A DNA stretch of 32,000 bases from Erysipelotrichaceae bacterium MTC7 (GTDB lineage: Bacteria; Bacillota_I; Bacilli_A; Erysipelotrichales; Erysipelotrichaceae): NCBI GenBank assembly GCA_001695645.1, contig LVZN01000003.1, positions 30,001 to 62,000 of the forward strand, given 5' to 3'. The notes beneath the pieces were generated by a model, which had not been told where the DNA came from, made no database searches, and worked only from the letters and a program-made list of their open reading frames with translations. Every line of letters begins with the position of its first letter. Position 1 is the first letter of the stretch. The translations under genes and the position numbers were made by a program. Of this stretch, positions 578 through 27,498 are shown piece after piece.

Positions 578-3500
578 TTAAAATCCTCCTCGTTTATTAT
601 TTTTTTTAAAACTACAAAATGTTTTTGAACAATTGGCTAATGAATGTTTTGCATAACGCATCTCCCTCTTCATTAACACACACATATAGAATGAAACACA
701 TAATAATATTGCACCAAGAATGATATAAATGTAGTTACCTGTGCCTCCCATTGATGGTAAAATGGAACCTTTTACATTGGTTATCGTAAAAGTCACGTTG
801 AGTGCCGGTCCATCAACATCAATCTGAACGCCATCTGTGGTAGTTTCTGGTAGTTCTAAAGGCAAGGACACAAGTATTGGGTCTTTAAGTATGTTGTATC
901 CTTCTGGTGCTAAAATTTCTCTAATTCGATAATCTCCCCTCTCTAAATTGTTGAAAACAGCTTCACTTTCATTTAGCATCTTCATAACTTTAATCTCAAT
1001 CCATTGATTTTCTTCGTTTTTCTTTTCTAAGACGAAACTTGCTCCCAAGAGCGGTTGGTTGTTTTCATCAACTTTTTTTATTTTTATACTACCAACTTCA
1101 ATGTTCCTAATATTCTGGTGACCATCTTCATCTGTAAAGTATTCAGGCCGATACTGACTATCTGCTGTGAGGTTGTCACCAACTTTTATTTCCACAACTC
1201 GATAGACATATTCCACTTTATCGGTTGATAAATAATCAACGTATTTTGGTAAACCAAAGTAGCTATAATTCCAATTATCATGAATCGATACTACCTTTTG
1301 TGCAATTTTATTTCCAGTTTTATCTTTAGCGATTTCATAAGTGGAATCAGCGGTTCCTTTTATTTTTCTTTCCAGTTGAATCGTAATGCTTTCAGGTCTT
1401 GATGGACTGTCTTGATCCTCCCAGTATTTTTGACCTTGCAATTCAATGGTAGGGAAAATGGAGTTTACATAATCGAGAGTCGTTTTGGTGTCGTTGATAA
1501 TGCCACTAGCCGAATAGGTTGTTAAATCAATGGTGATATTGGTATTTGTTTCATCATGTTTGATTTCATGTAATGTAAATTCATCATCAATTTCTTTGAC
1601 TTCCTTGATTGTGTACGTTGTTCCTGCGGGTATCCCTTGCATCGTATATTCACTACCTGGTGTTAACGATACGTTGGTATCTTCAATTGGATTTTGTCCT
1701 TCAAGACCAAGTCCAGCGACATTCTCAAAAGAAACGATAAATTTATAGGTTTTATTTGGATCAAACTGTTCTCCATCTTTAATTGATTTTTTTAGGGTAA
1801 GAGAACCAGTCTTTAATGTATTTGTATATTTTATTTTTAAGTTTGTACTTGATTTTGTGCTATCTGGATCATCATATCGGTAAAATGCAATCGCGTGATC
1901 TGGTTGGCTTATGCCTGAAGTTGCTTGCTTCACTAGACGTCCATCACCGGCCTCCAGGCCATTGATTCGCGATAAAGAGGTAAGCTCTTTTGTTTGTTGT
2001 ACATTAGTTGTCACTTGATTTAGTGCACTAGGTGAAATCGTCTGATTATCTTCTGTTACTGTCCATATAGTTGAAAAAATATTTGGATCAAGACCAATTT
2101 CACTAATTGCAATGTAACTTCCTTTACGAAATTGATTTCTAAATGTAGCTACTTGGTTGTTAGATAGTGAGAACATCCCATCTGTTACTTCGCGATATTC
2201 ACTGGTTGACAATGAACCACCAGCAATTGAATAAGTTGCCCCACTGGCTTTTTCTAGTACTTTTGAAGCTAATGAACCGTAATCATTAATTGTACTTGGA
2301 TCTGTTGAAAATCCATTCGACATATCTGAGGATGTATTAGATTTGTGGAAAGTAAATGGTGAAATATACACGTTTACATCATTCCAGTATGCAAATTGAA
2401 TCTCTACAACTTTTGTAAAGTCAAAACCGGTAATAGAACCATTAGCTAATACATGATCTTGTAGTGCCGATAAGTCTATTTTCATCGTTCGCCATATTTT
2501 TGAACCCATAGTGTTGGAACTATTCTGATAACTGACTTGATTTGCCCATGCTCCAATTCTAGTACCATCACCATCGACCAAAGCGATAAAAGGTGCGGTC
2601 CCATTCTCTGAAGAGTCTTGATAAGTTTCAAATGTCAAATAGTCAGCGGTATTTGAAACATTTATATAACTTTGCTTGCTTGACTGATCAGCAGGTGTGA
2701 TTTTCACAATACGTTTATCTGTGACAGCCTGTCCATCACTACTTTTTTTCTCACCAGGAGCATACCAAGAGATGACGTCTTTTCCATCCTTGTTTATAAA
2801 TGAGGCTGAGACATTAGATACTTTACTAAGTGTTTGTGATTTGTCTGTTGTTGTATATGTGTTGTAAATTTTCTCTTTTGCTTCAGTGCTTCCGCCAACA
2901 TATGCAATGGTATCAGTAACTAAATTTTTGATTGAAAAATCAAAATTCATATTCTTTAAATTATTCATTGATTCATTGAAAATTGCATCAACACTTGGAA
3001 TTTCTACCTCTTTTTCAACTTGCAAGTTATTTCGTTCCGGGAAGTTGAAAGTAATCTTCATGTTAGATTCCCAAACTCCACGTTCCATATAGAATATTTT
3101 CATCACATGTTCATCAGTGTATGAACTTTTTGGTAAAACATTGGCAAATGGAGTACTCTTTGGTCCCAAATGTTCTCCATTTGCATCTTTTGTTCCTGAG
3201 ACAGTTGATGTTTGCGTATTAAAGTTAATTGAACCATATACACGACCGTGATCTCCACCGATATCTAGAACTAAATTCCCATCAATATAAATCCAAATAT
3301 CATCATCTCCAGAGAAATCAAATACAATGTCTTTATTGGCTCCGTTCATCTCAATGGTACCATCTTCACTTAAGGTAAATGGAATCTCCATTTCCATTCC
3401 AAATCCATAATCAAGCTTATTTACATTTCCACTTTGACCACTGTCGTTAAATGGAAAAAATCCCATCGTCTCAACGTTCTCACCTGTAAGTCCATTGATT

Positions 3501-5062
3501 CCAACACCTGTACGTTGTAAGTAATATCCATCTACATTTGACTCTTTCATTTGTAAAGCATAGGATGATTCAGCACTGTCAAACTCCCAATAACCATTAC
3601 TGTTTAAAGTGAATGGGAAGGCAACTTGATCGTAAACTGCAGCCAAAGGAGTATTCTTGTTGCGTAAAAAACTTGTATTAAAATATGGCACTTCAATTTG
3701 GTTCATTGTCACTTTACCGTTACTTAGTGTAGAATCGACCAATCCTTGGTATGCATCTGTTGAGAAATTTGCTGAATTGTTTTTGTAGTAATTGAAGTTG
3801 TATAAATTCCAATTACTATCAAATTGACTATCAGACCAGTAACTTTGATTTTTTTGTTCCCAAAAATCTCCAAAATATAAAGGATTGGATTGTGCATTTT
3901 TACTTCGGAAGTACTGTGCAATCATGCGGTTAAAATATTGAAATTGATTTTTATAATCGGCACTAGAAACTCCAGTCGTTGAGCAGTTCTTCTTACTTTG
4001 TCCGGACTTCATTTCATAATCAGAGTAATAATCATAAAATGTTGAAGTTGCATAATAAGCATCTTTAACGACTTCCTTACTGCCGTTTGTTACTGGAATG
4101 TCTTTGCTTTGATCACCTTTAGAATAATCACTTTCATATGTAGAATCAAAATCGACAGTATCTAAACGGTATGTCCAGACTCCATTAACTAAAAACTTTT
4201 CGTAACCATTCCAATAGTAAGCATTTCCTTTTGCACTTTCCAATGTGGTTTCATCAAGATTTGAAGTACGGAAGTATTCTTGTGTATCTGCATGTTCCCA
4301 AGAGTCATCGTAAAGAAACGCGATACTTCCAGATGCATCTGCTTGGATGTTTGATACATCCCAATACACAAAAGTAATATTCTTGTATCTTACCAGTCCA
4401 TCTGCTTTGCATAGTCTTTGATTTTCACTAGCTGGTAGTGTCGAGATGTATAAATACAACTCATCATTTCTTGTTGTCCAGTCAGCATTTGAATTTTTAC
4501 TCATGCCACTTACATCAAGATAAATATGATTACTATTCAGTTCTGTGATGGGCTGTATAGATGGATTGTTTGGTCCCAAATCGTGCCAGGTTCCACTATA
4601 ATTTTTTCCTGATCCACTACTCATCACAAAGCAAGGGGAATCCATAGACCAGTTAACGGTTAAGTCAATTGTTTGCACATTGTTGTCCCAAGATGCACCC
4701 TTTGTAAAAATCACTTTGCTCCAAGCACGATCAAAGGTATACGCATAGATATGATCACCTCGATCAGATACGTTCATTTTATAAGGGCCACCACTGTTTT
4801 CATTGTTTCCATTTTCATCGAATCCGTAAATCCCAACACCGTATTTCGTTATCCACTCATCGTTAGTGTAATTCGAGGCATCGAAATAAACCGTATATTC
4901 ATTATCTGTGGATACTGTCGTTGGTGTTTCGTTTGCCATAACACCATGATTTGGCAATATCAACAAGAGTATACACAACGCTAGAAGGCATAGTATGCCT
5001 GAAATGATCTTTCCTTTTTTATGTTTCTGAATGTACGCGAAAAAAACTTTGTTAATCCTCAT
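578..5062 (-). CDS. Very large cell-wall-sorted surface adhesin, probable pilus tip adhesin: CBM-like N-terminal modules, a fibro-slime/PA14-like domain, C-terminal CnaB/SpaA-type Ig-like domains and an LPxTG-like sorting signal
   Basis: ORF 578..5089. I prefer the ATG at 5062, which has AAGGAG 7 nt upstream (complement of 5070..5075) and gives MRINKVFFAYIQKHKKGKIISGILCLLALCILLLILPNHGVMA as the signal peptide. The motif FDFSGDDDIWIYIDGNLVLDIGGDHG (Gly codon at 3310..3308) matches the fibro-slime/PA14 signature 'F.F.GDDD.WVFIN..LA.DLGG.H'. GQKYWEDQDSPSRPESITIQL...YVYRVVE looks CnaB-like. GSIKIKKVDENNQPLLGASFVLEKK...GDYRIREILAPEGY looks like a SpaA prealbumin-type fold. The C-terminus is LPSMGGTG, a hydrophobic helix and a basic tail. 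Confidence 0.8.
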   Translation of the reverse strand: MRINKVFFAYIQKHKKGKIISGILCLLALCILLLILPNHGVMANETPTTVSTDNEYTVYFDASNYTNDEWITKYGVGIYGFDENGNNENSGGPYKMNVSDRGDHIYAYTFDRAWSKVIFTKGASWDNNVQTIDLTVNWSMDSPCFVMSSGSGKNYSGTWHDLGPNNPSIQPITELNSNHIYLDVSGMSKNSNADWTTRNDELYLYISTLPASENQRLCKADGLVRYKNITFVYWDVSNIQADASGSIAFLYDDSWEHADTQEYFRTSNLDETTLESAKGNAYYWNGYEKFLVNGVWTYRLDTVDFDSTYESDYSKGDQSKDIPVTNGSKEVVKDAYYATSTFYDYYSDYEMKSGQSKKNCSTTGVSSADYKNQFQYFNRMIAQYFRSKNAQSNPLYFGDFWEQKNQSYWSDSQFDSNWNLYNFNYYKNNSANFSTDAYQGLVDSTLSNGKVTMNQIEVPYFNTSFLRNKNTPLAAVYDQVAFPFTLNSNGYWEFDSAESSYALQMKESNVDGYYLQRTGVGINGLTGENVETMGFFPFNDSGQSGNVNKLDYGFGMEMEIPFTLSEDGTIEMNGANKDIVFDFSGDDDIWIYIDGNLVLDIGGDHGRVYGSINFNTQTSTVSGTKDANGEHLGPKSTPFANVLPKSSYTDEHVMKIFYMERGVWESNMKITFNFPERNNLQVEKEVEIPSVDAIFNESMNNLKNMNFDFSIKNLVTDTIAYVGGSTEAKEKIYNTYTTTDKSQTLSKVSNVSASFINKDGKDVISWYAPGEKKSSDGQAVTDKRIVKITPADQSSKQSYINVSNTADYLTFETYQDSSENGTAPFIALVDGDGTRIGAWANQVSYQNSSNTMGSKIWRTMKIDLSALQDHVLANGSITGFDFTKVVEIQFAYWNDVNVYISPFTFHKSNTSSDMSNGFSTDPSTINDYGSLASKVLEKASGATYSIAGGSLSTSEYREVTDGMFSLSNNQVATFRNQFRKGSYIAISEIGLDPNIFSTIWTVTEDNQTISPSALNQVTTNVQQTKELTSLSRINGLEAGDGRLVKQATSGISQPDHAIAFYRYDDPDSTKSSTNLKIKYTNTLKTGSLTLKKSIKDGEQFDPNKTYKFIVSFENVAGLGLEGQNPIEDTNVSLTPGSEYTMQGIPAGTTYTIKEVKEIDDEFTLHEIKHDETNTNITIDLTTYSASGIINDTKTTLDYVNSIFPTIELQGQKYWEDQDSPSRPESITIQLERKIKGTADSTYEIAKDKTGNKIAQKVVSIHDNWNYSYFGLPKYVDYLSTDKVEYVYRVVEIKVGDNLTADSQYRPEYFTDEDGHQNIRNIEVGSIKIKKVDENNQPLLGASFVLEKKNEENQWIEIKVMKMLNESEAVFNNLERGDYRIREILAPEGYNILKDPILVSLPLELPETTTDGVQIDVDGPALNVTFTITNVKGSILPSMGGTGNYIYIILGAILLCVSFYMCVLMKREMRYAKHSLANCSKTFCSFKKNNKRGGF

Positions 5063-5172
5063 AATTCCACTCCTTATCAACACATACATAAATTATATTT
5101 CACAATTCTAAACACACATTTGTTATTACCTTCAAACTAACATTTTAAACGCTTGCATTCAATAGCAAAAAC

Positions 5173-7391: not shown

Positions 7392-8159
7392 ATGTTTGTG
7401 GAAGAACGACAAGCTTTAATACTAGAACAATTGCATAAAAATGGAAAAGTTCGCGTGAAGGACTTAAGTGAACAGTTTGGTGTAACTCCCGACTTGATTC
7501 GTAAAGATTTAACAACAATGGAGAAAAAGGGGTTACTAAAAAAAGCTTATGGTGGAGCAGTCTTAGAACGCATCAATATCAATCGTAAAAACGCAAGTCA
7601 ACGAAAAGATCTGAATACCAAAGATAAACAGGAAATTGTGAAGCTAGCAAGTCAAATCATCAAAGAGGATCAGGTGGTTTTCTTGGATGTTTCAACTAGT
7701 AGCATTGAACTGGCATTGCTGCTACAAAAGCAAGAGCGTAGAATCATCGTTGTGACAAACATGATTGAAGTCATGCTTATTCTAGCAAAATCAGAAACCA
7801 TCAAACTTATTTTTATTGGTGGTGAGTTAGACTTTGGTCGTGATGGATTTGTTGGTTCTACAGCCAATGAGGAAATTAGCAACTATCGTTTTGATGTGGC
7901 CTTTTTAGGAGTTGTGGGCATTGATGTCTTTAGTGGCAGTGTTTATACGTATATGAACGATGATGGACTCACAAAGAAAGCCGTCCTTGCTAGCAGTCAA
8001 AAAGCCTACATGTTATGTGAATTGGACAAGTTCAATCAACTAGGGAATTATCGGTATGCTGGAATCTCTGATTTTACAGGTATTGTGACAAGTGGTAAAC
8101 CAAGTAAAGAAATTCAAAAATGTTTGATTGATGCAAATCTTGAAGTTATATATCCATAG
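7392..8159 (+). CDS. DeoR/GlpR-family transcriptional regulator (sugar-phosphate-responsive type)
   Basis: The N-terminal HTH ERQALILEQLHKNGKVRVKDLSEQFGVTPDLIRKDLTTMEKKGLLKKAYGGAV is canonical DeoR. The C-terminal ~170 aa form a DeoR_C-like sensor domain. SD GAGGTG. Confidence 0.9.
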   Translation: MFVEERQALILEQLHKNGKVRVKDLSEQFGVTPDLIRKDLTTMEKKGLLKKAYGGAVLERININRKNASQRKDLNTKDKQEIVKLASQIIKEDQVVFLDVSTSSIELALLLQKQERRIIVVTNMIEVMLILAKSETIKLIFIGGELDFGRDGFVGSTANEEISNYRFDVAFLGVVGIDVFSGSVYTYMNDDGLTKKAVLASSQKAYMLCELDKFNQLGNYRYAGISDFTGIVTSGKPSKEIQKCLIDANLEVIYP

Positions 8160-8219
8160 AAGACATCGAAAGGATGTTTTCTTTTTGTGATAAAACAATA
8201 AAAAACAATAAGAAATACA

Positions 8220-8247
8220 TTGACAACAATAAACAAGAGAATATAAT
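8220..8247 (+). promoter_or_regulatory. Consensus sigma-A promoter of the GRE operon
   Basis: TTGACA (8220..8225), 16-nt spacer, TATAAT (8242..8247). This places the transcription start inside the N-terminal extension shown in the ORF track. Confidence 0.7.
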
Positions 8248-8278
8248 GAAAGTAACAAGGAACATCATGGAGGACATA

Positions 8279-10630
8279 ATGGAACTTCAACAAACCAAAC
8301 GCATTCAAATATTAAAAGATAAAATGATGCAGGAAGAGCGCTACGTCAGTATTGAACAAGCAAGAATCATCACCGACACATACAAACAACACGAAGATCA
8401 ACCGATAATTTTGAAACGTGCACATGCTTTGAAAGCTTCACTTGAAAAGATGGAAATAGGTATCGAACCAGAAGAATTAATCGTAGGTAATCGAACCAAA
8501 GGGGTTCGTGCAGGTGTCGTCTTTCCAGAGGGTGGATGTTCATGGGTAGATAAAGAGTTTGAAAGCCTACCAACGCGTCCACAAGATACGTTTCAAATTC
8601 GTAAAGCAGATATCAAAGAATTTCGAGAAGTTATTTTACCGTACTGGCAAGGGAAAACGTTAGAAGATGTTGTCACAAGTCGTGGTGGTAAACAAATCAA
8701 AGAGATTGCAAAAGTTGCTAAAATAAATCAAACGGACCATGCTCAAGGACACATTTGTCCAGACTGTCAAACTTGGTTAGCTAAAGGTCCTGCAGGTTTG
8801 TATGAACAAGCACGCAAAGCCCATGCCAAGGCAACAGGTGATCATGCACAATTTTATGAGAGTGTTATATTGGTATTGGAAGGTGCTATGCATTTTATGC
8901 AAAGATATCATGATTTGCTAGTGCAAGAAGCACAAAAACCAGAAAACGAAAAAAATAAAGAATCAATGCTTACGGTTGCTACAATTTGTGAAAATCTAAC
9001 AAAACGACCTGCACAAAGTTTTCATGAGGCACTGCAGGCTACGTGGTTTTTATTTGTAATTTTACAAATGGAAAGTAATGCATCTTCATTTTCTCCAGGA
9101 CGTATGGATGTGTTCTTATATCCGTACTATCAAAAAGACATTCTACAAGGCGTAATCACAAAACAAGAAGCGTTGGAACTCATTGAGGCACTATGGTTAA
9201 AATTTAATCAAATCGTGTATTTACGTAATAAAAATGGGGCAAAGTATTTTGCTGGTTTCCCCATTGGGTTCAATGTTGCAGTGGGTGGACAAGATGTAGA
9301 CGGTAAGCCATATGAAAATGAACTTTCTCATTTGTTTTTACAAGCACAAGAACATTTGGGTTTACCACAACCGAACTTAAGTGTCCGCTTGCACAAAAAC
9401 ACAAGCGATGCCTTGTTGAAACACGCCATTCGTGTTGTTGCCAAAGGTAGTGGTATGCCACAGTTCTTCAATGATGAAAGTATCATTGATGCAATGATGG
9501 ATTTAGGTATTAGTCAAAAAGATGCACGTAACTATGCCATTGTTGGTTGTGTGGAGCTGACGACATCAGGCAATGGTTTGGGATGGTCGGATTCGGCAAT
9601 GTTCAATTTCAATAAGGCGTTGGAACTCACGTTAAATCATGGAACTTGTTTACTTTCAAAACAAGTGATGTCTCCAGATTTTGGTGGCTTGGATACCTAT
9701 ACATCGTATGAAGAGTTAGAAATAGCATATGAAAAAATGTTGGATTATTATATCGATAAAATGATTGCTTGTATTGAAATTGTGGAACAAGCACATATGG
9801 ATATCCTACCTTCACCATTTTTATCTTCGGTTATGGATGCATGTTTAGACAAGGGTGTAGATGTAACAGCCGGTGGTGCACATTATAATCTAAATGGAAT
9901 TCAAATGATTCAAATTGCCAATTTGGCAGACTCGTTAGCCGCTATTAAAAAACTTGTCTACACCGACAAGCGTATAAAGCAAGAAGAGCTCTTACATGCA
10001 CTACAACATAATTTTGAAAATGCAGAAGTTTTACGACAAACCCTGTTACATAAAGTTGATAAATATGGAAATGATGTTGCATGGGTTGATGAACTCGGAG
10101 CACGTTGGGCTCGCAAGTTTCGTTCAAAACTAAGAAACTTTACCAATGTAAGAGGTGGTCCATATCATACAGGAATGTATACAGTGAGTGCACATGTGCC
10201 AATGGGAGAAAACGTTGGGGCAAGTCCTGATGGTCGTTTAAGTCAAACTCCACTTGCAGATGGTGGGATGTCTGCAGTATACGGTCGGGACATCAATGGA
10301 CCGACTGCGGTGCTTAAATCTGTATCTAGACTGGATAATGAACTGACGACCAACGGTGGTTTACTCAACATGAAATTTCTTCCAGAATTTTTCAAAAATG
10401 AAGCGGGCGTCGATAAGTTTGCAAGTTTTATGCGTTCGTTTGTACAACTAGAAATTCCACATATCCAGTTCAACGTTGTGCGCAAAGAAGACTTGCTTGC
10501 AGCAATTGCACAACCAGAAAAGTATCGTTCTTTAACGGTACGAGTTGCTGGATATACCGCATATTTTACCGAACTAGCAGGAGAACTACAAAATGAAATT
10601 ATCGCTAGAACCAGTTATGAATCCATCTAA
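8279..10630 (+). CDS. Glycyl radical enzyme of the PFL superfamily, dehydratase/eliminase class; substrate not assignable from sequence alone
   Basis: Glycyl radical motif RVAGY (Gly codon 10550..10552) and a GCVE catalytic Cys loop (Cys codon 9548..9550). The Cys-x-Glu arrangement is that of the dehydratase/lyase GREs, not the Cys-Cys of PFL. I prefer the start at 8279 (GGAGG 6 nt upstream, downstream of the promoter); 8267 is an alternative. The N-terminus MELQQTKRIQILKDKMM...SIEQARIITDTYKQHE is typical of GREs. Confidence 0.9.
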   Translation: MELQQTKRIQILKDKMMQEERYVSIEQARIITDTYKQHEDQPIILKRAHALKASLEKMEIGIEPEELIVGNRTKGVRAGVVFPEGGCSWVDKEFESLPTRPQDTFQIRKADIKEFREVILPYWQGKTLEDVVTSRGGKQIKEIAKVAKINQTDHAQGHICPDCQTWLAKGPAGLYEQARKAHAKATGDHAQFYESVILVLEGAMHFMQRYHDLLVQEAQKPENEKNKESMLTVATICENLTKRPAQSFHEALQATWFLFVILQMESNASSFSPGRMDVFLYPYYQKDILQGVITKQEALELIEALWLKFNQIVYLRNKNGAKYFAGFPIGFNVAVGGQDVDGKPYENELSHLFLQAQEHLGLPQPNLSVRLHKNTSDALLKHAIRVVAKGSGMPQFFNDESIIDAMMDLGISQKDARNYAIVGCVELTTSGNGLGWSDSAMFNFNKALELTLNHGTCLLSKQVMSPDFGGLDTYTSYEELEIAYEKMLDYYIDKMIACIEIVEQAHMDILPSPFLSSVMDACLDKGVDVTAGGAHYNLNGIQMIQIANLADSLAAIKKLVYTDKRIKQEELLHALQHNFENAEVLRQTLLHKVDKYGNDVAWVDELGARWARKFRSKLRNFTNVRGGPYHTGMYTVSAHVPMGENVGASPDGRLSQTPLADGGMSAVYGRDINGPTAVLKSVSRLDNELTTNGGLLNMKFLPEFFKNEAGVDKFASFMRSFVQLEIPHIQFNVVRKEDLLAAIAQPEKYRSLTVRVAGYTAYFTELAGELQNEIIARTSYESI

Positions 10631-11540
10631 ACTTACAGGCAACGTTTTTGATATCAAACGCTTTGCTCTACATGATGGACATGGTTTACGAACAACGGTT
10701 TTTCTTAAAGGTTGTCCACTGCACTGTTGCTGGTGTCAAAATCCAGAAGGAATTGCATCAACAAAACAAGTTCTTTATTTTGCCAATTCTTGTATCAATT
10801 GTAAAACGTGTCTTGCATACAGCAAAAACGGCGGTATTACTTCGCAGGAAAAAGGAATTAAACTTTGTCGTGAAAAAACTGAAGATTGGGATACGATTAT
10901 TAATATGTGCCCTACCAATGCTTTGCAATATGATAGTAAGACATATACCGTAAATCAATTGATCACGGAACTCAAAAAAGATTTGGTGTTTTTTCAAAGC
11001 GATGGTGGTGTGACTTTTTCAGGAGGAGAACCTCTCTATCAAGCACCGTTCTTACTAGAAAGTTTAAAGGCCTGCAAGCAAGCCAATATGCATACAGCAA
11101 TAGAAACGACACTCTATGCAAAAAAAGAAATCATTGAAGAAATCTTTACCTATGTAGATTTAATCTATGTGGACTTAAAAATACTTGATTCAAAAAATCA
11201 TCAAAGGTATGTTGGTGCAAAAAATGATGGAATCTTAGATAACTTTCGATATCTACTAACATCGATTCATAAAGATAAGGTGATAGTGCGTACACCGCTC
11301 ATTCCACAAATGACAGCAACAAAAGAAAACATCGAGCAAATTGCGAAATTTCTATTTCACTTATATCCCGATGTACATTATGAACTACTTAACTATAACC
11401 CACTTGCTAAAGCAAAGTATGAATATCTCGATGGTACTTATTGTTTTAGTGAAAATCCAAAACCTTACAACGATGAACAACTACAAAAGTTTTATGACAT
11501 CGTATTACAGCAGGGGATCAAACATCTCATAATAGAATAA
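10593..11540 (+). CDS. Glycyl-radical-enzyme activating enzyme (radical SAM)
   Basis: FDIKRFALHDGHGLRTTVFLKGCPLHCCWCQNPE carries the CxxxCxxC radical-SAM cluster motif. Extra Cys motifs CINCKTC...CPTNAL match the ferredoxin-like insert of non-PFL GRE activases. The start at 10593 (AGGAG upstream) overlaps the GRE gene by 38 nt. The ATG at 10617 is an alternative but has no SD. Confidence 0.9.
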   Translation: MKLSLEPVMNPSKLTGNVFDIKRFALHDGHGLRTTVFLKGCPLHCCWCQNPEGIASTKQVLYFANSCINCKTCLAYSKNGGITSQEKGIKLCREKTEDWDTIINMCPTNALQYDSKTYTVNQLITELKKDLVFFQSDGGVTFSGGEPLYQAPFLLESLKACKQANMHTAIETTLYAKKEIIEEIFTYVDLIYVDLKILDSKNHQRYVGAKNDGILDNFRYLLTSIHKDKVIVRTPLIPQMTATKENIEQIAKFLFHLYPDVHYELLNYNPLAKAKYEYLDGTYCFSENPKPYNDEQLQKFYDIVLQQGIKHLIIE

Positions 11541-11552
11541 GAAGGAGACATT

Positions 11553-12239
11553 ATGAAACTATTAATTGACAATGCAAATCTAGGGGAAATTAAACGAATT
11601 TATGAATTCTATCCAATCGATGGGGTAACATGCAACCCAACCATTTTACGTAAAGAAGGAAAAAATCCATACAAGCTATTAAAAGCGATACGTGCCTTTA
11701 TTGGGGAAGATGCACAATTGCATGTACAAGTCATCGGAATGGATGCCATCACAATGATTGAAGAAGGTCATCAAATCCAAAAAGAATTGGGAGCGAATAC
11801 CTACATTAAAATCCCAGTAACTCCAGAAGGTTTAAAAGCCATCAAACACTTAGCTAGTGAAGGGGCGAATGTTACAGGTACTGCAGTCTACAATCAAATG
11901 CAAGGATTTCTTGCCGGTAAAGCAGGAGCTAAATATGTCGCTCCATATGTAAACCGCATCGATAATTTAGGTTATGATGGAATTACGGTTGCCAAGCAAA
12001 TTCATGATATGTTAAAACAAGCCAATTTAGAAACAAATATTTTAGCAGCGAGTTTTAAGAACTCGTTTCAGGTATTGGACTTATGTGAATATGGAGTTGG
12101 GGCAGCTACGGTTGCACCAGATGTTATTGATGGGTTCATCAAAAGTGATGTAATCACAAGTGCAGTTGATGCATTTACCAAAGATTTTGAAGCACTATGT
12201 GGGGAAGATACCAACATGCTTACAATTGCAAATAGCTAA
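11553..12239 (+). CDS. fsa: Fructose-6-phosphate aldolase / transaldolase-family class I aldolase (FSA/TalC type)
   Basis: NPTIL, YIKIPVT (Schiff-base Lys context), GTAVYN, YVAPYVNRID and LAASFK align with the pattern I recall for E. coli FsaA/FsaB. 228 aa. SD AAGGAG. Confidence 0.85.
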   Translation: MKLLIDNANLGEIKRIYEFYPIDGVTCNPTILRKEGKNPYKLLKAIRAFIGEDAQLHVQVIGMDAITMIEEGHQIQKELGANTYIKIPVTPEGLKAIKHLASEGANVTGTAVYNQMQGFLAGKAGAKYVAPYVNRIDNLGYDGITVAKQIHDMLKQANLETNILAASFKNSFQVLDLCEYGVGAATVAPDVIDGFIKSDVITSAVDAFTKDFEALCGEDTNMLTIANS

Positions 12240-12613: not shown

Positions 12614-13420
12614 TTATAAGAATAATAATAGACTAACAGCCATCACGATCATTCCAAGAATTAATCCATAAATTGAAATGTGATGTTCACCGTATTCTCT
12701 AGCTGCTGGTAATAGTTCATCAAAAGAGATAAAGACCATGATCCCCGCAACTCCAGCAAAAATACAACCAAAGACAACATCATTCATGATTGGCATTAAA
12801 ATTAACCAGCCAACTAAAGCTCCGATTGGTTCCGCAAGTCCTGATAAAAAAGAATATTTAAATGCAGTTCGCTTGGAACCTGTTGCATAATAAATTGGAG
12901 CCGATACGGCAATCCCTTCAGGTATGTTGTGAATGGCAATGGCTACAACTACAGGAACGGCTACGGATGGATCTTGAATGGCAGATACAAATGTTGCAAG
13001 TCCTTCAGGAAAGTTGTGAATCCCGATAGCCAGTGCTGTCATAATGCCCATACGATGTAATTTCTTTTTGTCTTTTTCATGCTTTGCTTCTTTGCTGTAA
13101 TCTACCTCTTTTGGTTCGTGTGGGTTTTCTTCACTTGGAACAAGTTTGTCAATAATCGCAATCACAAACATCCCCACAAAAAAGGAAATGACGGTTGCCC
13201 AACTACCTAACTTGGTTCCAAGTTCACCAATTAATGTGGTTTGTGCACTAGCAAATATTTCAATCATTGAAACATACACCATGACCCCAGCTGAAAATCC
13301 TAGGGAAAATGATAAAAACTTTTTATTTGTGCGCTTTGCGAAGAAAGCGATAAAACTTCCAATTCCGGTACATAAACCAGCGATTGCGGTAAACATAAAT
13401 GCAATCAACACATTGCTCAT
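12614..13420 (-). CDS. zupT: ZIP-family zinc/divalent-metal transporter ZupT
   Basis: 268 aa with 8 hydrophobic segments. It has the paired ZIP signatures HNFPEGLA and HNIPEGIAV and a central His/Lys/Glu-rich loop (EENPHEPKEVDYSKEAKHEKDKKKLH). SD AGGAGG. Confidence 0.9.
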   Translation of the reverse strand: MSNVLIAFMFTAIAGLCTGIGSFIAFFAKRTNKKFLSFSLGFSAGVMVYVSMIEIFASAQTTLIGELGTKLGSWATVISFFVGMFVIAIIDKLVPSEENPHEPKEVDYSKEAKHEKDKKKLHRMGIMTALAIGIHNFPEGLATFVSAIQDPSVAVPVVVAIAIHNIPEGIAVSAPIYYATGSKRTAFKYSFLSGLAEPIGALVGWLILMPIMNDVVFGCIFAGVAGIMVFISFDELLPAAREYGEHHISIYGLILGMIVMAVSLLLFL

Positions 13421-13561: not shown

Positions 13562-13599
13562 AAAACAAAAACGAGTCTAAGACCCGTTTTTGTTTTTGT
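13562..13599 (-). terminator. Rho-independent terminator after the lipoprotein gene; A/T runs on both sides
   Basis: ACGAGTC-TAA-GACCCGT hairpin (13571..13587, one mismatch) flanked by AAAACAAAA and TTTTTGTTTTTGTT. Confidence 0.6.
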
Positions 13600-13600
13600 T

Positions 13601-14260
13601 CTAGTGGTGGTTTCGGTGGTGTTCTTGTTTATACGTTTTATTTTCGTGATGGTTGTTTGGATAGTTTACACAATTGACATGGTGTAATGTTGGATCCTGA
13701 CAGTTTTCAAGGCAGCAATGTGGTTGGCAATCGCGTTGTCGAGTAACAAGACGATCTTGAACAGGTGTATTCACTGCTGGTTGTACCGGTTGTGCAACAC
13801 TGTTTTCAACGACAGGTGTAGGTGCGGGTGCAACCGGTGTTGTTTGGTGAATTCGATCTTGATCACGTGTTTTTAGCAAGCTTGCATATTCGCATAAAGA
13901 ACTTCTAATGGAAACTTGCGTATCTTTATCAAACATGTCGCCTTTGAAACGCACTTGAATGTCATCTTTGTCACGATTTTCTAAATACCCTTTGGCATGG
14001 ATTTTGGTAAGTACATCAATAAGCACTGGAGCAGCACTTTTGTTTTTGTAGGTAATGTTTTCAACAATGGCTTTTGCTTCTTCATTTTTAGCTAAAAGCT
14101 TTGTTACATTTCCTTGTGCATCCAGTTGCAGTTCAACTTCTGGATTTACTTTCAAAAAGATCTGTCCAGCGATTGCTGGTTTGCTTACGTTTGCACTTGT
14201 ACATCCTACACATGTCATAAACACCAGTAAAACCGCAAAGAATTGTTTAAGTTTTTTCAT
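13601..14260 (-). CDS. Lipoprotein whose mature domain is a paralogue of the RsgI-like ectodomain, with a Pro-rich linker and a Cys/His-rich C-terminal tail
   Basis: Signal peptide with lipobox-type Cys (MKKLKQFFAVLLVFMTCVGC). IFLKVNPEVELQLDAQGNVTKLLAKNEEAKAIV... aligns with IWLRYNPEYRIEIDKQGNVIEAKGVNQDAIDSL... of the adjacent anti-sigma gene. The last 43 aa contain 5 Cys and 9 His (DCQPHCCLENCQDPTLHHVNCVNYPNNHHENKTYKQEHHRNHH). Confidence 0.75.
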   Translation of the reverse strand: MKKLKQFFAVLLVFMTCVGCTSANVSKPAIAGQIFLKVNPEVELQLDAQGNVTKLLAKNEEAKAIVENITYKNKSAAPVLIDVLTKIHAKGYLENRDKDDIQVRFKGDMFDKDTQVSIRSSLCEYASLLKTRDQDRIHQTTPVAPAPTPVVENSVAQPVQPAVNTPVQDRLVTRQRDCQPHCCLENCQDPTLHHVNCVNYPNNHHENKTYKQEHHRNHH

Positions 14261-14295
14261 TTGGTTTGACCTCCCTTTATGAATTACACTACACC

Positions 14296-14326
14296 ATACG
14301 TAGTTGCTTTTCTTAAAGTGGGGTAA
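14296..14326 (-). promoter_or_regulatory. Candidate SigI-type promoter upstream of the lipoprotein gene (copy 2 of a duplicated element)
   Basis: Minus strand reads TTACCCCA-CTTTAAGAAAAGCAA-CTACGTAT. Both 8-mers and the 15-nt spacing are identical to the element upstream of sigI. A C-tract -35 with a CG(A/T)A -10 matches what I recall of sigma-I promoters. Confidence 0.6.
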
Positions 14327-14334
14327 TCGGTGAT

Positions 14335-15189
14335 TTAATCGTGATGTTCTTGGTCACGTTTTTGATGTGTTTCATTTTCCACAACTGGTTGTGCATTTTG
14401 ATGCTCTTGGTGGGTTGCTGGATTTTGTTGTTGATTGTTTTGCTCTACCGGAACATGTTGTTGGACATTTTGTTGATGTGTTTCTTTTTCTTGGTGTTGC
14501 TGTTGCTGTTGTTGTGTGTTTTGGTTGTGTTTATTTTCAGGGACAACGTCCGGTAGAGCTTCAGGTGTTGTTTGGTTTTCTTGTTGATTTCCGTGTTTGT
14601 ATTGATGCTTCTTACCAATGTCTTCAATCTGATACGGGATTTCTTTATGACAAAGCTTTTCCTTTAGCCGTATCTCCAGTTCAGTTGCAATCTGGCTGTA
14701 CAAAGAGTCATCCTTCGTATCAATAAATACTTCAAAGGTTTTATCCTGCGTTAGTTTTTCATTTTGTATTCCATAATCGATAATGGCATTGGTAATTGTG
14801 ATGTAACTTTTATCTTTGAATGCTTTTAAATTGAGGGAATCGATAGCATCTTGATTGACACCCTTTGCTTCGATAACATTTCCTTGTTTGTCAATTTCAA
14901 TTCGATATTCTGGATTGTAGCGTAACCAAATGGTAGCAACAACCGGACTTTCCAAACGTGGAAACATGAAAATCAGTAGGGCAATGCAAGTGCTGATGGC
15001 AAGAAGTCCAGCAACGATAGTCCGTGGTCTCCATTTGCGTTTGTTTGGTTGGACATCACTTTGAAAAGGAACGATTTCATCAATTTGATCTCCGATTTGA
15101 TAACTGAAATTAACAGCTAGATCGAAACTACCATTTGTATCTAGAGTTACAACATAGCTTTCGTGTACTTCCATCACTACGTATTTCAT
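14335..15189 (-). CDS. rsgI: Anti-sigma-I factor, RsgI-like: RsgI_N domain, one TM helix, extracytoplasmic domain and a Gln/His-rich disordered tail
   Basis: The N-terminus MKYVVMEVHESYVVTLDTNGSFDLAVNFSYQIGDQIDEI matches the RsgI_N pattern. TM helix IVAGLLAISTCIALLIFMF. The ATG overlaps the sigI stop (ATGA at 15186..15189). The last ~90 aa have about 25 Gln and 11 His, including QQQQQQHQ. Confidence 0.8.
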   Translation of the reverse strand: MKYVVMEVHESYVVTLDTNGSFDLAVNFSYQIGDQIDEIVPFQSDVQPNKRKWRPRTIVAGLLAISTCIALLIFMFPRLESPVVATIWLRYNPEYRIEIDKQGNVIEAKGVNQDAIDSLNLKAFKDKSYITITNAIIDYGIQNEKLTQDKTFEVFIDTKDDSLYSQIATELEIRLKEKLCHKEIPYQIEDIGKKHQYKHGNQQENQTTPEALPDVVPENKHNQNTQQQQQQHQEKETHQQNVQQHVPVEQNNQQQNPATHQEHQNAQPVVENETHQKRDQEHHD

Positions 15190-15920
15190 GAAATCACTCC
15201 TTTCGTTTTTGGAATTGATAATCCACTTAAATGTTCACGAATGCACTCGTAACCATTTGAGTAAATGATAAGTAGGGCAATTAGATAGTTGCGATGTCGT
15301 TCGATTACTTTACGTTCAACATCAACAAGTAACAAGATGTCTTGAATTGGCAATCGCTTACTGCTTTTGAGTTGGACGATCAAGGATGGTTTTTCAACAA
15401 CGGCACGAACGACGCGTTTGCATGCATCCAAGGTTCGTTTTTGCTTAGGTCCGTATTTTGCGATATCGGTAAGTTGCAGTGAGAAACCTTTTAGTTCTTG
15501 TTGGAATTCAAGTAACTCCATTTGAATTGCTTTTGTTGCTGGGATTTTATAACTGTATTTCTGTGAAGGAAGATGATCAAGTAAACTTTGGTCTTCATCA
15601 TCCGTTTTATCTAGGGAAATGTGTTGATGTCTTTGTTCACTTCTTAGATAGTCAATAACACGCCGCTTCATCAGTAGAGCAGCATAGCTTAAAAATGTTC
15701 CTTTGCCTTTTTCATAGGTCATAATGGCATCATAAAAACCCAACATCGCAAAACTTAATTCATCATGTACACCATAACTAACGTGGTGTTTACAGACTTC
15801 GCTTGTGATGCTTGCAATATATGGTTTGTAACTAGCGATCAGTTGATCTGCAAGAAGTGGATCGTGCTTTGCTGCTTCGACTTCTTTTACAATGTCATCG
15901 TTTCGTTTGTTTTGGTCCAT
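15186..15920 (-). CDS. sigI: RNA polymerase sigma-I factor (SigI family)
   Basis: LIASYKPYIASITSEVCKHHV...DELSFAMLGFYDAIMTYEKGKGTFLSYAALLMKRRVIDYLRSE closely follows the pattern I recall from B. subtilis SigI (EYKPFI...SVC...DEFSIGL.AFNEAI..Y......F..FA...IKR+VIDYLRKE). SD GGGGGG. Confidence 0.85.
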   Translation of the reverse strand: MDQNKRNDDIVKEVEAAKHDPLLADQLIASYKPYIASITSEVCKHHVSYGVHDELSFAMLGFYDAIMTYEKGKGTFLSYAALLMKRRVIDYLRSEQRHQHISLDKTDDEDQSLLDHLPSQKYSYKIPATKAIQMELLEFQQELKGFSLQLTDIAKYGPKQKRTLDACKRVVRAVVEKPSLIVQLKSSKRLPIQDILLLVDVERKVIERHRNYLIALLIIYSNGYECIREHLSGLSIPKTKGVIS

Positions 15921-16011
15921 AGACCCCCCTTTATATCTTAAGCATAATATAGGAGTCAGCTTTGGTAAAGGTTATTCGCTTTATTATGGTGTGATAGCTA
16001 ACTACTATAAA

Positions 16012-16042
16012 ATACGTAGCGAGTATTATAAAAATGGGGTAA
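16012..16042 (-). promoter_or_regulatory. Candidate autoregulated SigI-type promoter upstream of sigI-rsgI (copy 1)
   Basis: Minus strand reads TTACCCCA-TTTTTATAATACTCG-CTACGTAT, about 90 nt upstream of the sigI ATG. Same terminal 8-mers and 15-nt spacer length as 14296..14326. Confidence 0.6.
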
Positions 16043-16070
16043 AAAAAAGAGGAATTATCAATTCCTCTTA
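16041..16070 (-). terminator. Rho-independent terminator after the DJ-1/PfpI gene
   Basis: AAGAGGAATT-(GAT)A-AATTCCTCTT hairpin (16048..16070), followed on the minus strand by a T8 run. Confidence 0.75.
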
Positions 16071-16615: not shown

Positions 16616-16756
16616 TTATGAGACCTCCTAAGTAACTTAAGTATAGCACTTTTAGCGCTAGAAACGACTGAGATGCTTAGCTTTATAAACGGATGAGGAT
16701 AAAGAACAAACTACAATGCTGTGTTGATTGAAGTGGATACGAAAGTTGTTTGTTAT

Positions 16757-16794
16757 GGAAAAACGACCCATTCCCATTGGGGATTAGGTCGTTT
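16757..16794 (-). terminator. Rho-independent terminator after the helicase gene
   Basis: AAACGACC (16761..16768) pairs with GGTCGTTT (16787..16794). On the minus strand the stem is followed by TTTTTCC. Confidence 0.6.
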
Positions 16795-16796
16795 AT

Positions 16797-26427: not shown

Positions 26428-27498
26428 ATGAAAAAACAAAGTTATGTTATCAATTTTCTATTGATCTTTGGTTTGACCGCATTTGGGTTATGGTTTGCCC
26501 TAAAAGATCATTATAAAGAAGTCCTTAATTTACTTTCTAATCTCAGCATCGTCGCGATTGCTTTGATTTTTCTTTATGGACTTTCGTATAATTTTATCAT
26601 CGGTTGGATCTACAAAGTGATTGGAAAAACATATAAAAAAGACTATCGCTATCGTGAAGGGTTGTCCGTTGCATTTGTTGGTGCTTTTTTTAGCGGGATT
26701 ACACCGAGTGCTTCAGGTGGACAATTTGCGCAAGCTTATGTCTTAAAGAATCAAGATTTGAAGATGAGCAGTGCGCTTAGTTTGCTTTGGATAGATTTTA
26801 TTATTTATCAGAGTGTCATGGTGGCATATACAACCGTATTGATGGTGTTACGTTTTAGCTACTACTATACCGAACAGTCTTCATTTTTTATTTTGGTTTT
26901 AATTGGATACGTCATCAATAGTGCGGTTATCGTATTCTTGTATACGATGGCTAAGTTTCCCAAAGCTTATGAACATTTAAGTGGGTTTGTGGTTCGAATC
27001 TTAGCACGATTTCACATCATCAAAAACCCAGATCAAACCATTGAGAAATGGAATATCTCGCTTGGCCAATTCACAAAGGAAATTCAAGAAATTAAACATC
27101 GTAAAAAAATGGTAATAAAATGCATCGGATTGAATGTTTTGCGTTTAACCTTACTTTATACCTTACCTTTACTGATTGCGTATGTAATGAAAATTGATGT
27201 TTCGTTTTCAATGGTATTTGATGTCATCACGATGAGTGCTTTTGTTATGATTGCCAATGCATTTTTACCAGTTCCCGGAGCCAGTGGTGGAACCGAGGCT
27301 GCGTTCATTTTAATATTTTCAACAATGTTTACAACCATTCAAGCCAATAGCATCATGATCTTGTGGCGGTTTGCGACGTATCATTTAATCATGTTGGTTG
27401 GTGGTGTAACGTTTATATTCCTAAAACGGAAATACGATAAACTTAAAAACAGTGTAATTACGAAGGAGGATTATCATGAAAATAGCAATCTTTACTGA
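26428..27498 (+). CDS. Membrane protein of the LPG_synthase_TM / UPF0104 family (MprF flippase-domain-like, YbhN-like)
   Basis: 356 aa with about 8 TM helices. It carries two copies of the family signature (ITPSASGGQFAQAY and LPVPGASGGTEAAF). It lacks the C-terminal aminoacyl-PG synthase domain of MprF. Confidence 0.7.
   Translation: MKKQSYVINFLLIFGLTAFGLWFALKDHYKEVLNLLSNLSIVAIALIFLYGLSYNFIIGWIYKVIGKTYKKDYRYREGLSVAFVGAFFSGITPSASGGQFAQAYVLKNQDLKMSSALSLLWIDFIIYQSVMVAYTTVLMVLRFSYYYTEQSSFFILVLIGYVINSAVIVFLYTMAKFPKAYEHLSGFVVRILARFHIIKNPDQTIEKWNISLGQFTKEIQEIKHRKKMVIKCIGLNVLRLTLLYTLPLLIAYVMKIDVSFSMVFDVITMSAFVMIANAFLPVPGASGGTEAAFILIFSTMFTTIQANSIMILWRFATYHLIMLVGGVTFIFLKRKYDKLKNSVITKEDYHENSNLY

Follow-up and report, generated by a model that had tools for sequence, protein, structure and literature searches.

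A SEAL-domain lipoprotein gene with a predicted sigma-I-type promoter beside sigI-rsgI in Erysipelotrichaceae bacterium MTC7

The sigI-rsgI-lipoprotein locus and its promoter-like sites

The DNA analyzed here, a 32-kb stretch of the genome of Erysipelotrichaceae bacterium MTC7 (contig LVZN01000003.1; hereafter the window, with coordinates 1-32000, scanned on both strands for the promoter motif described below), carries three consecutive genes on its minus strand. They encode a 244-aa sigma factor, probably of the sigma-I family (sigI, 15186..15920, called from SigI NCBIfam models and Sigma70_r2), a probable 284-aa anti-sigma-I factor (rsgI, 14335..15189, called from PF23750 and a homolog alignment), and a 219-aa lipoprotein with a SEAL domain (13601..14260, called from PF23750, a lipobox, and an AlphaFold2 model). 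The sigI stop and the rsgI start overlap by 4 nt (15186-15189), and this pairing recurs in all related loci. The 74-nt gap that separates rsgI from the lipoprotein gene contains no terminator, which makes read-through from the sigI promoter likely. This report concerns these genes and two promoter-like sites, one ahead of sigI and the other ahead of the lipoprotein gene.

The best NCBIfam match of the sigI product is TIGR02895 (181.9 bits, with a cut-off of 185). All of its ten best NCBIfam hits are SigI models, other sigma families score at most 35 bits, and sigma-70 region 2 (PF04542) is matched with 31.8 bits (cut-off of 24). Its database twin (100 per cent identity) is a hypothetical protein of Erysipelotrichaceae bacterium MTC7.

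In the RsgI-like protein, a putative sigma-binding domain (aa 1-45) is followed by a single transmembrane segment (aa ~56-77), then by a SEAL domain (aa 85-200, nt 14937-14590) and a tail rich in Q, N, and H (aa 201-284, nt 14338-14589). The predicted cleavage site within the SEAL domain is N92-P93 (nt 14916-14911). The protein matches RsgI_M (PF23750) with 35.7 bits (cut-off of 25.3; E=1.6e-8), and N92-P93 is invariant in the RsgI-family alignment. When compared with the Protein Data Bank (PDB), the family profile retrieves only structures of RsgI SEAL or periplasmic domains (8t9n, 8hep, 8her, 8u9o, and 8hdj); residue 1 of the crystallized C-terminal cleavage fragments corresponds to P93 in this alignment. 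A search for RsgI_N (PF12791), proposed in a preliminary description of the locus, gives a divided answer: the window protein by itself yields a weak match (E=0.15; 12.3 bits, with a cut-off of 25), but 19 of 24 aligned homologs match the model (best E 8e-6), and the window protein aligns with them at M1, Y3, G20, and G33. Neither the RsgI-like protein nor the lipoprotein matches an NCBIfam model.

Two 31-nt sites on the minus strand have identical terminal 8-mers at a 15-nt spacing. One is situated ahead of sigI (16042->16012, TTACCCCATTTTTATAATACTCGCTACGTAT), 92 nt 5' of its start codon and just past the terminator of the DJ-1/PfpI gene, and the other ahead of the lipoprotein gene (14326->14296, TTACCCCACTTTAAGAAAAGCAACTACGTAT), inside the 74-nt gap and 36 nt 5' of the start codon. 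In this respect the preliminary description was accurate: the 8-mers, their spacing, and their coordinates are as it had given them, the open reading frame coordinates agree with its placement of the sites, and TAGT does occur at an equal offset in both, 4 nt past the downstream 8-mer. With up to three mismatches allowed, TTACCCCA-N15-CTACGTAT has only these two matches in the 32 kb (both strands; 0.09 expected from shuffles), and 0 of 100 shuffles attain two. The relaxed core ACCCC-N18-20-CGWA finds the same two sites and no others (0.30 expected). We annotate them as predicted sigma-I-type promoters of sigI-rsgI (16012..16042, minus strand; -35 core ACCCC at 16040-16036 and -10 core CGTA at 16016-16013) and of the lipoprotein gene (14296..14326, minus strand; ACCCC at 14324-14320 and CGTA at 14300-14297), from which transcription would be expected to start near 16003 and near 14287, respectively.

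The published sigma-I consensus is ACCCCC--AA-N15-CGAA----T in Bacillales (PMC4711584) and AAA-N13-14-CGWA in cellulolytic clostridia (PMC4711584; PMC10575876). The window sites, ACCCC-N19-CGTA, are 1 nt shorter than the Bacillales layout (the spacer is N20 in one relative). The published consensus and the recurrence of the sites in relatives (see below) thus support the earlier view that the C-tract -35 and the CGTA -10 are sigma-I-like. Sigma-A promoters were considered and ruled out: there are just two weak 9-of-12 matches, which overlap the sigI site, and sigma-70-like hits in the region are below the shuffle level. A repeated mobile or REP-like element was also ruled out, because the two boxes alone are conserved and the spacer is not. 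The predicted promoter of Clostridium thermocellum sigI8 (…CGAATTTTCTATAGT) has the CGWA-N-CTATAG extension seen here (PMC4711584, Table 1), and among the C. thermocellum RsgIs, RsgI8 alone has neither N-P nor a known sensor domain; RsgI8 may be the nearest characterized relative of this subfamily.

Upstream, the intrinsic terminator of the DJ-1/PfpI gene (16047..16069, minus strand; 10-bp stem followed by a T-run) is predicted to insulate the sigI promoter against read-through. Downstream, the lipoprotein gene is followed by another intrinsic terminator (13562..13596, minus strand; 16-bp stem, -18.5 kcal/mol, z=-6.35, U-rich tail), and the next gene, encoding a ZIP transporter (12614-13420), has its own sigma-A-like promoter at 13488-13460. 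From this layout of promoters and terminator, the unit reads P-sigI-rsgI-P-lipoprotein-terminator.

The lipoprotein and its SEAL domain

The signal peptide of the lipoprotein (aa 1-19) precedes the lipobox Cys20. The SEAL domain spans aa 31-137 (nt 14170-13850), with N39-P40 at nt 14146-14141, and is followed by a disordered tail (aa 138-219, nt 13604-13849). The N-terminus of the protein runs MKKLKQ, a hydrophobic stretch, and C-V-G-C20; the consensus of the homologs is L-x-G-C, and the Cys at -3 is atypical. PF23750 corresponds to the juxtamembrane SEAL domain, which cleaves itself between Asn and Pro in a beta1-beta2 hairpin (Brogan et al. 2023; Chen et al. 2023). In RsgI, the cleavage fragments remain associated (Brogan et al. 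2023; Chen et al. 2023), and mutation of N or P to Ala all but abolishes cleavage (Chen et al. 2023). The family model scores higher in the lipoprotein (55.2 bits, with a cut-off of 25.3; E=1.5e-14) than in the RsgI-like protein.

The preliminary description had aligned the two ectodomains by eye and named the significance of that alignment as a test. BLASTP aligns the RsgI-like protein and the lipoprotein over 70 residues with 31 per cent identity, including the block I(W/F)L.(Y/V)NPE...D.QGNV; its E-value of 8e-8 indicates that the alignment is real, and both proteins pass the PF23750 threshold. In an alignment of 66 homologs of the lipoprotein, C20, N39, P40, and N59 are invariant, and position 61 is Glu in the window protein and Asp in most others. 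In RsgI2, the polar residues near Asn-Pro are an Asn at +20 and an Asp at +22 (Chen et al. 2023). The Asp at -2 and the Ser at +2 of classical RsgIs are replaced by Lys and Glu in the lipoprotein.

An AlphaFold2 model built from the 66-homolog alignment has a core at aa 31-137 (pLDDT 76-92), in which N39-P40 lies in the turn between beta1 (32-37) and beta2 (42-46), and a disordered tail (aa 139-219; pLDDT below 50). A structural comparison with SEA-like autoproteolytic domains had also been suggested. In a Foldseek search of the PDB, the best match of the model is indeed the SEAL domain of Bacillus subtilis RsgI (8t9n; E=8e-5, probability 1.0, target TM 0.68). The periplasmic domains of C. thermocellum RsgI6, RsgI2, RsgI9, and RsgI1 come next. 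Phmmer aligns the lipoprotein with 8t9n and with 8u9o_B, a fragment that starts at P.

In a neighbor-joining tree, the SEAL domains of the lipoproteins form one clade and those of the RsgIs another, and cognate RsgI and lipoprotein SEAL domains are only 13-23 per cent identical. The paralogy is therefore ancient, and the two genes have been inherited as a pair; the same observations rule out that they duplicated recently or that gene conversion has acted between them. Pfam, BLASTP, the modeled fold, and the tree together support the conclusion that the lipoprotein is a true paralog of the RsgI ectodomain. The earlier label of a paralogue of the sensor domain is thus correct as to paralogy and in need of revision as to the sensor, since what the two proteins share is the autoproteolytic SEAL module, whereas ligand sensing belongs to another part of RsgI.

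The end of the lipoprotein tail (aa 178-219, nt 13604-13729, minus strand) is rich in Cys and His: a His-rich run comes after a C-x3-CC-x3-C-x9-C motif. P0002, the lipoprotein of a sister species, has two copies of that motif. A Pfam search of this segment gave no match. A link of the Cys/His-rich tail and the ZIP neighbor to metal is possible. In both the window and the sister species, the gene next to the lipoprotein gene encodes a metal transporter of the ZIP family.

The triad and its promoters in related genomes

A word-indexed homolog search with the lipoprotein recovered only the protein itself; an exhaustive phmmer search returned 171 relatives. Among the best 150 of these, about 94 combine a signal peptide, mostly with a recognizable lipobox, with a SEAL domain, and the remainder are RsgI-like. 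All seven sampled lipoprotein homologs (L002, L003, L004, and L006-L009) are encoded directly after sigI-rsgI. A metagenome scan, which used a narrow lipoprotein alignment and whose sample is skewed to the clostridial clade, yielded 70 loci that collapse into 37 clusters at ~90 per cent identity. Where at least 2.3 kb of upstream sequence is available, sigI and rsgI adjoin the lipoprotein gene in 22 of 23 clusters, 16 of them co-directional and six divergent; in the divergent arrangements, the lipoprotein gene can only use its own promoter. A search anchored on SigI found the triad in five of six informative loci, including L010/L011, L002, L086, and L087. The lipoprotein of L087 has a PepSY-like insert. 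Conservation of the triad, which the preliminary description had set out to be checked, thus extends from the sister species to the homologs and clusters sampled here.

The promoter motif is also conserved. Of 11 first-round loci, 10 have it 5' of sigI, as do 17 non-redundant metagenome clusters, and it precedes the lipoprotein gene in 9 of 9 first-round loci. Of 35 non-redundant clusters, 33 carry ACCCC-N19-CG(T/A)A no more than 300 nt 5' of the start codon of the lipoprotein gene, so the motif does exist at orthologous loci, a point on which the earlier proposal had been made to depend. Across 904 kb (both strands), 103 of 115 strict motif hits fall ahead of sigI or of the lipoprotein gene. 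The consensus is cgACCCCG.TTTt...aaa...c.T.CGTAttCTataa for the lipoprotein-gene promoter and tACCCCg.tttt.a.aaa.....T.CGTATtCTaTa for the sigI promoter. Five clusters carry the motif in tandem (two or three copies). Tandem copies of ACCCC-N19-CGWA, spaced ~80-100 nt apart, are seen ahead of the lipoprotein gene in L087 (L087:6700-6870), L007, L009, L049, L050, L063, and L084.

The closest SigI relative is that of the sister species (L010/L011), whose synteny is the same as in the window: DEAD helicase, DJ-1, sigI, rsgI, SEAL lipoprotein, and ZIP. Its sigI site has both 8-mers and their spacing identical to those in the window, with three differing spacer positions, and its lipoprotein site reads TGACCCCA-N15-TTACGTAA at the same place, with a different spacer. 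Because the boxes are kept while the spacer differs, the comparison provides a phylogenetic footprint of the two boxes. Identity between the window and the sister species is 68 per cent for SigI, 58 per cent for RsgI, and 39 per cent for the SEAL domain of the lipoprotein. P0002 (L010:7555-8337) has Leu-Pro in place of Asn-Pro and, judged by this substitution, is probably not self-cleaving; the RsgI of the same locus retains N-P.

These data allow two simpler accounts of the paired sites to be weighed. That the 8-mer repeat arose by chance within AT-rich intergenic DNA, an idea for which nothing speaks except the small size of the boxes, has a negligible probability, given two sites where 0.09 are expected, shuffles that never reach that number, and the retention of the motif at orthologous sites across many loci. 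The second motif might instead be inactive, its boxes vestigial or the site of some other regulator, with the lipoprotein gene read through from the sigI promoter. Because the gap lacks a terminator, such read-through is likely regardless; yet the boxes are kept in the sister species while the spacer of the lipoprotein site differs, the motif is present in nearly all of the clusters examined, including the six divergent ones, where read-through is impossible, and the five with tandem copies, and the site matches both the one ahead of sigI and the published sigma-I consensus. We therefore consider an inactive second site improbable. In contrast, it is probable, judging from these sequences, that SigI drives the promoters ahead of both sigI-rsgI and the lipoprotein gene.

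In most relatives, the lipoprotein gene is followed by genes for a VTC-domain protein (PF09359), a DUF4956 protein, and CotH (PF08757), in that order; 22 of 37 clusters and all of the long first-round loci have this arrangement (e.g. L004:5773-8610). L018 has sigI-rsgI-lipoprotein-CotH without VTC or DUF4956. No VTC, DUF4956, or CotH gene was found within the 32-kb window, and the sister species likewise has the triad with none of the three nearby. Judging from its genes, the set might work outside the cytoplasm as a kinase/polyphosphate system that SigI controls. Frequent neighbors of these loci are genes for PhoU, PhoR-like kinases, a Na/Pi cotransporter, and polyphosphate kinase. The CotH of L002, the one whose N-terminus was read, has a hydrophobic segment at its start.

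The tails of RsgI and its cognate lipoprotein are alike in composition within a locus and differ between lineages, in at least four classes: they are rich in Q/N/H in the window and L010, in G/S/T in L002, and in N/K/T in L086, and consist of Asp/Ser/Gly/Tyr repeats in most clostridial loci. The composition of cognate tails correlates with r=0.64-0.89; the exception is L003 (r=0.34), where the RsgI tail is 26 aa long. Between the RsgI tail of the window and lipoprotein tails of the clostridial type (all but that of the sister species L010), r is at most 0.17.

The same species is also represented by a metagenome contig, L001, whose lipoprotein is 99 per cent identical. In L001, an enolase gene is located between the DEAD-box helicase and DJ-1 genes (L001:2126-3370), which in the window are ~180 nt apart (16616-16796); the difference is a strain-level insertion or deletion. 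The open reading frame at 578-5089 (minus strand, 1503 aa) has SpaA/prealbumin-like, DUF7601, and DUF5979 domains and probably encodes a large surface adhesin. Genes at 7392-12239 (plus strand) encode a regulator identified as DeoR-type through synteny with L001, an 818-aa PFL-like glycyl-radical enzyme, its radical-SAM activase, and an enzyme of the transaldolase/FSA family, and are probably a sugar or deoxysugar utilization unit. At 27476-29464 (plus strand), a 662-aa open reading frame joins a GT4 glycosyltransferase (Glyco_transf_4 and Glycos_transf_1) to RecX-type helix-turn-helix domains; this is an unusual fusion or possibly a case of two genes run together.

Known systems and the possible role of the lipoprotein

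In B. subtilis, SigI-RsgI responds to cell-wall stress, with SEAL autoproteolysis followed by intramembrane cleavage by RasP. As in that system, sigI-rsgI appears to be autoregulated via an ACCCC...CGWA promoter, and RsgI combines a single transmembrane segment with a putative sigma-binding domain at its N-terminus, a SEAL domain containing N-P, and a disordered tail. Unlike in B. subtilis, the sequence after the -35 core is T-rich instead of AA, and the adjacent gene, which has a predicted sigma-I-type promoter of its own, encodes a lipoprotein version of the ectodomain; no third, SigI-driven SEAL paralog has been described in B. subtilis. SigI1-8 and RsgI1-9 of C. thermocellum serve in polysaccharide sensing, with Asn-Pro autocleavage followed by RseP and ClpXP. 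The MTC7 locus shares with them the periplasmic fold and the N|P site (8hdj, 8hep, 8her, and 8u9o are matched by the family profile and the lipoprotein model) and the -10 element CGWA. In contrast to the C. thermocellum RsgIs, which have carbohydrate-binding or glycoside hydrolase sensor modules and cellulosomal regulons, the proteins described here have low-complexity tails, and the conserved target is a paralog of the ectodomain.

More distant parallels exist outside the SigI systems. In the rpoE-rseA-rseB unit of Escherichia coli, which is autoregulated, the extracytoplasmic accessory protein RseB tunes the release of the anti-sigma factor; RseB is soluble, is not a paralog of RseA, and acts by blocking the site-1 protease. 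The lipoprotein resembles RseB in being an extracytoplasmic accessory protein encoded within a sigma/anti-sigma unit, although a comparable action here is hypothetical. MUC1 and other SEA-domain mucins have a membrane-tethered, self-cleaved domain and a long disordered ectodomain that can be shed by force. Unlike these mucins, the lipoprotein has a lipid anchor instead of a transmembrane helix, and the likeness in fold topology is convergent, not homologous, according to Brogan et al. (2023).

SEAL proteins without an anti-sigma domain are already known. The same study presents a signal peptide-SEAL-PepSY protein of D. welbionis and a TM-SEAL-helical bundle protein of P. brassicae (Brogan et al. 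2023, Figs S12-S13) and shows autocleavage and fragment retention for both. Like these, in which it follows a signal peptide or transmembrane segment, the window lipoprotein has an extracytoplasmic SEAL domain with a conserved hairpin and no sigma-binding domain; unlike these, it consists of SEAL and tail only. The accessible part of the study reports no sigI-rsgI linkage, sigma-I promoter, lipidation, or VTC-DUF4956-CotH neighbors. Our literature search, which took in few subscription-journal papers, found no description of a SEAL lipoprotein, of its linkage to sigI-rsgI, of a sigma-I promoter ahead of its gene, or of the six-gene cluster. The feature that appears to be new is the genetic and regulatory link of a SEAL lipoprotein to sigI-rsgI.

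Overall, we favor a three-gene sigma-I module in which SigI drives the expression of a lipoprotein paralog of the RsgI ectodomain, a reading to which we assign a probability of roughly 0.7. Free SigI would transcribe from the two ACCCC-N19-CGTA promoters, with read-through from the first probably also covering the lipoprotein gene, and the possession of its own sigma-I-type promoter would make the lipoprotein a dedicated output of the system. The protein would be exported and lipid-anchored at Cys20, exposing a SEAL fold and a disordered tail of ~80 residues. By analogy with the family, self-cleavage at N39|P40 is probable, and a lipidated beta-strand of ~19 residues would then non-covalently hold the remainder on the membrane surface. 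Because the SEAL-plus-tail design is shared and the tail tracks that of the cognate RsgI, the lipoprotein should meet the same envelope cue or pulling force, and, since it is uncoupled from SigI, we propose that it may buffer or compete for that cue in a negative feedback. Made only when SigI is active, it could serve as a decoy that takes up the envelope cue by which RsgI is pulled apart, or its ectodomain, once released, might re-cap the RsgI stub. Either step would set the threshold and the shut-off of the response. A feedback or decoy function of this kind is a tentative suggestion that we regard as rather unlikely to be correct as it stands; the lipoprotein could instead be shed as the effector of the system.

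Several observations weigh against a SigI-driven module built around a second, self-cleaving ectodomain. The sigI product scores 3 bits short of the TIGR02895 cut-off, and its promoter and that of the lipoprotein gene have a T-run after ACCCC where published sigma-I promoters carry an A-rich 'extended -35'. In Atopostipes, an ion-channel gene takes the place of the lipoprotein gene after sigI-rsgI, and one lineage, L044 (4809-7304) and L045, has a lipoprotein gene and CotH with neither sigI-rsgI within 5 kb upstream nor the motif. Judged by the window and its sister species, the SEAL domain of the lipoprotein evolves faster than RsgI or SigI. P0002 lacks, in addition to Asn-Pro, the conserved Asn and Asp/Glu 20-22 positions further on, so self-cleavage cannot be essential in this lineage. 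Finally, genome-wide mutational bias may contribute to the co-variation of the tails.

The principal competitor of a modulator of RsgI is an envelope effector: the lipoprotein would have its ancestral task in the pathway of the extracytoplasmic CotH-family kinase and the polyphosphate-polymerase-like VTC/DUF4956 proteins, for example as a substrate or scaffold via its tail, SigI would merely turn that pathway on, and the MTC7 lineage would have kept the lipoprotein alone. In most relatives, the lipoprotein gene heads the lipoprotein-VTC-DUF4956-CotH operon, a further point against a modulator, since it points to an effector role rather than to feedback. L018 and L044/L045 keep the lipoprotein and CotH alone, in L044/L045 even without sigI-rsgI, and the Asp/Ser/Gly/Tyr-repeat tails belong to loci with CotH, whereas the CotH-less window has tails rich in Q, N, H, and Cys. 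Nevertheless, the window and the sister species keep the triad with none of these genes nearby, the compositional resemblance of RsgI and lipoprotein tails is left unexplained by a pure effector, and the literature searched connects neither CotH nor VTC biochemically with SEAL proteins. We regard an effector role as a serious possibility, at somewhat less than even odds.

SigI/RsgI is a bacterial model of self-cleaving, force-sensitive signaling that parallels the eukaryotic SEA, GAIN, and Notch systems, and it has so far been described as a two-component unit whose known outputs are genes for the cell wall in Bacillus and for the cellulosome in clostridia. The loci described here represent a widespread subfamily, in gut and environmental Firmicutes, in which no output is better conserved than a lipid-anchored copy of the ectodomain of the anti-sigma factor. 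They bear on the tuning or resetting of the SigI/RsgI pathway and on the signal to which the disordered tails respond, and they tie SEAL proteins to the VTC-DUF4956-CotH gene set, for which we found no earlier link to SigI/RsgI or SEAL in the literature. If the lipoprotein is only an effector, the locus still provides a useful, if less surprising, definition of a regulon; if it does act in feedback, it would represent a new principle for regulated intramembrane proteolysis in Firmicutes, operating in a large and mostly uncultured clade.

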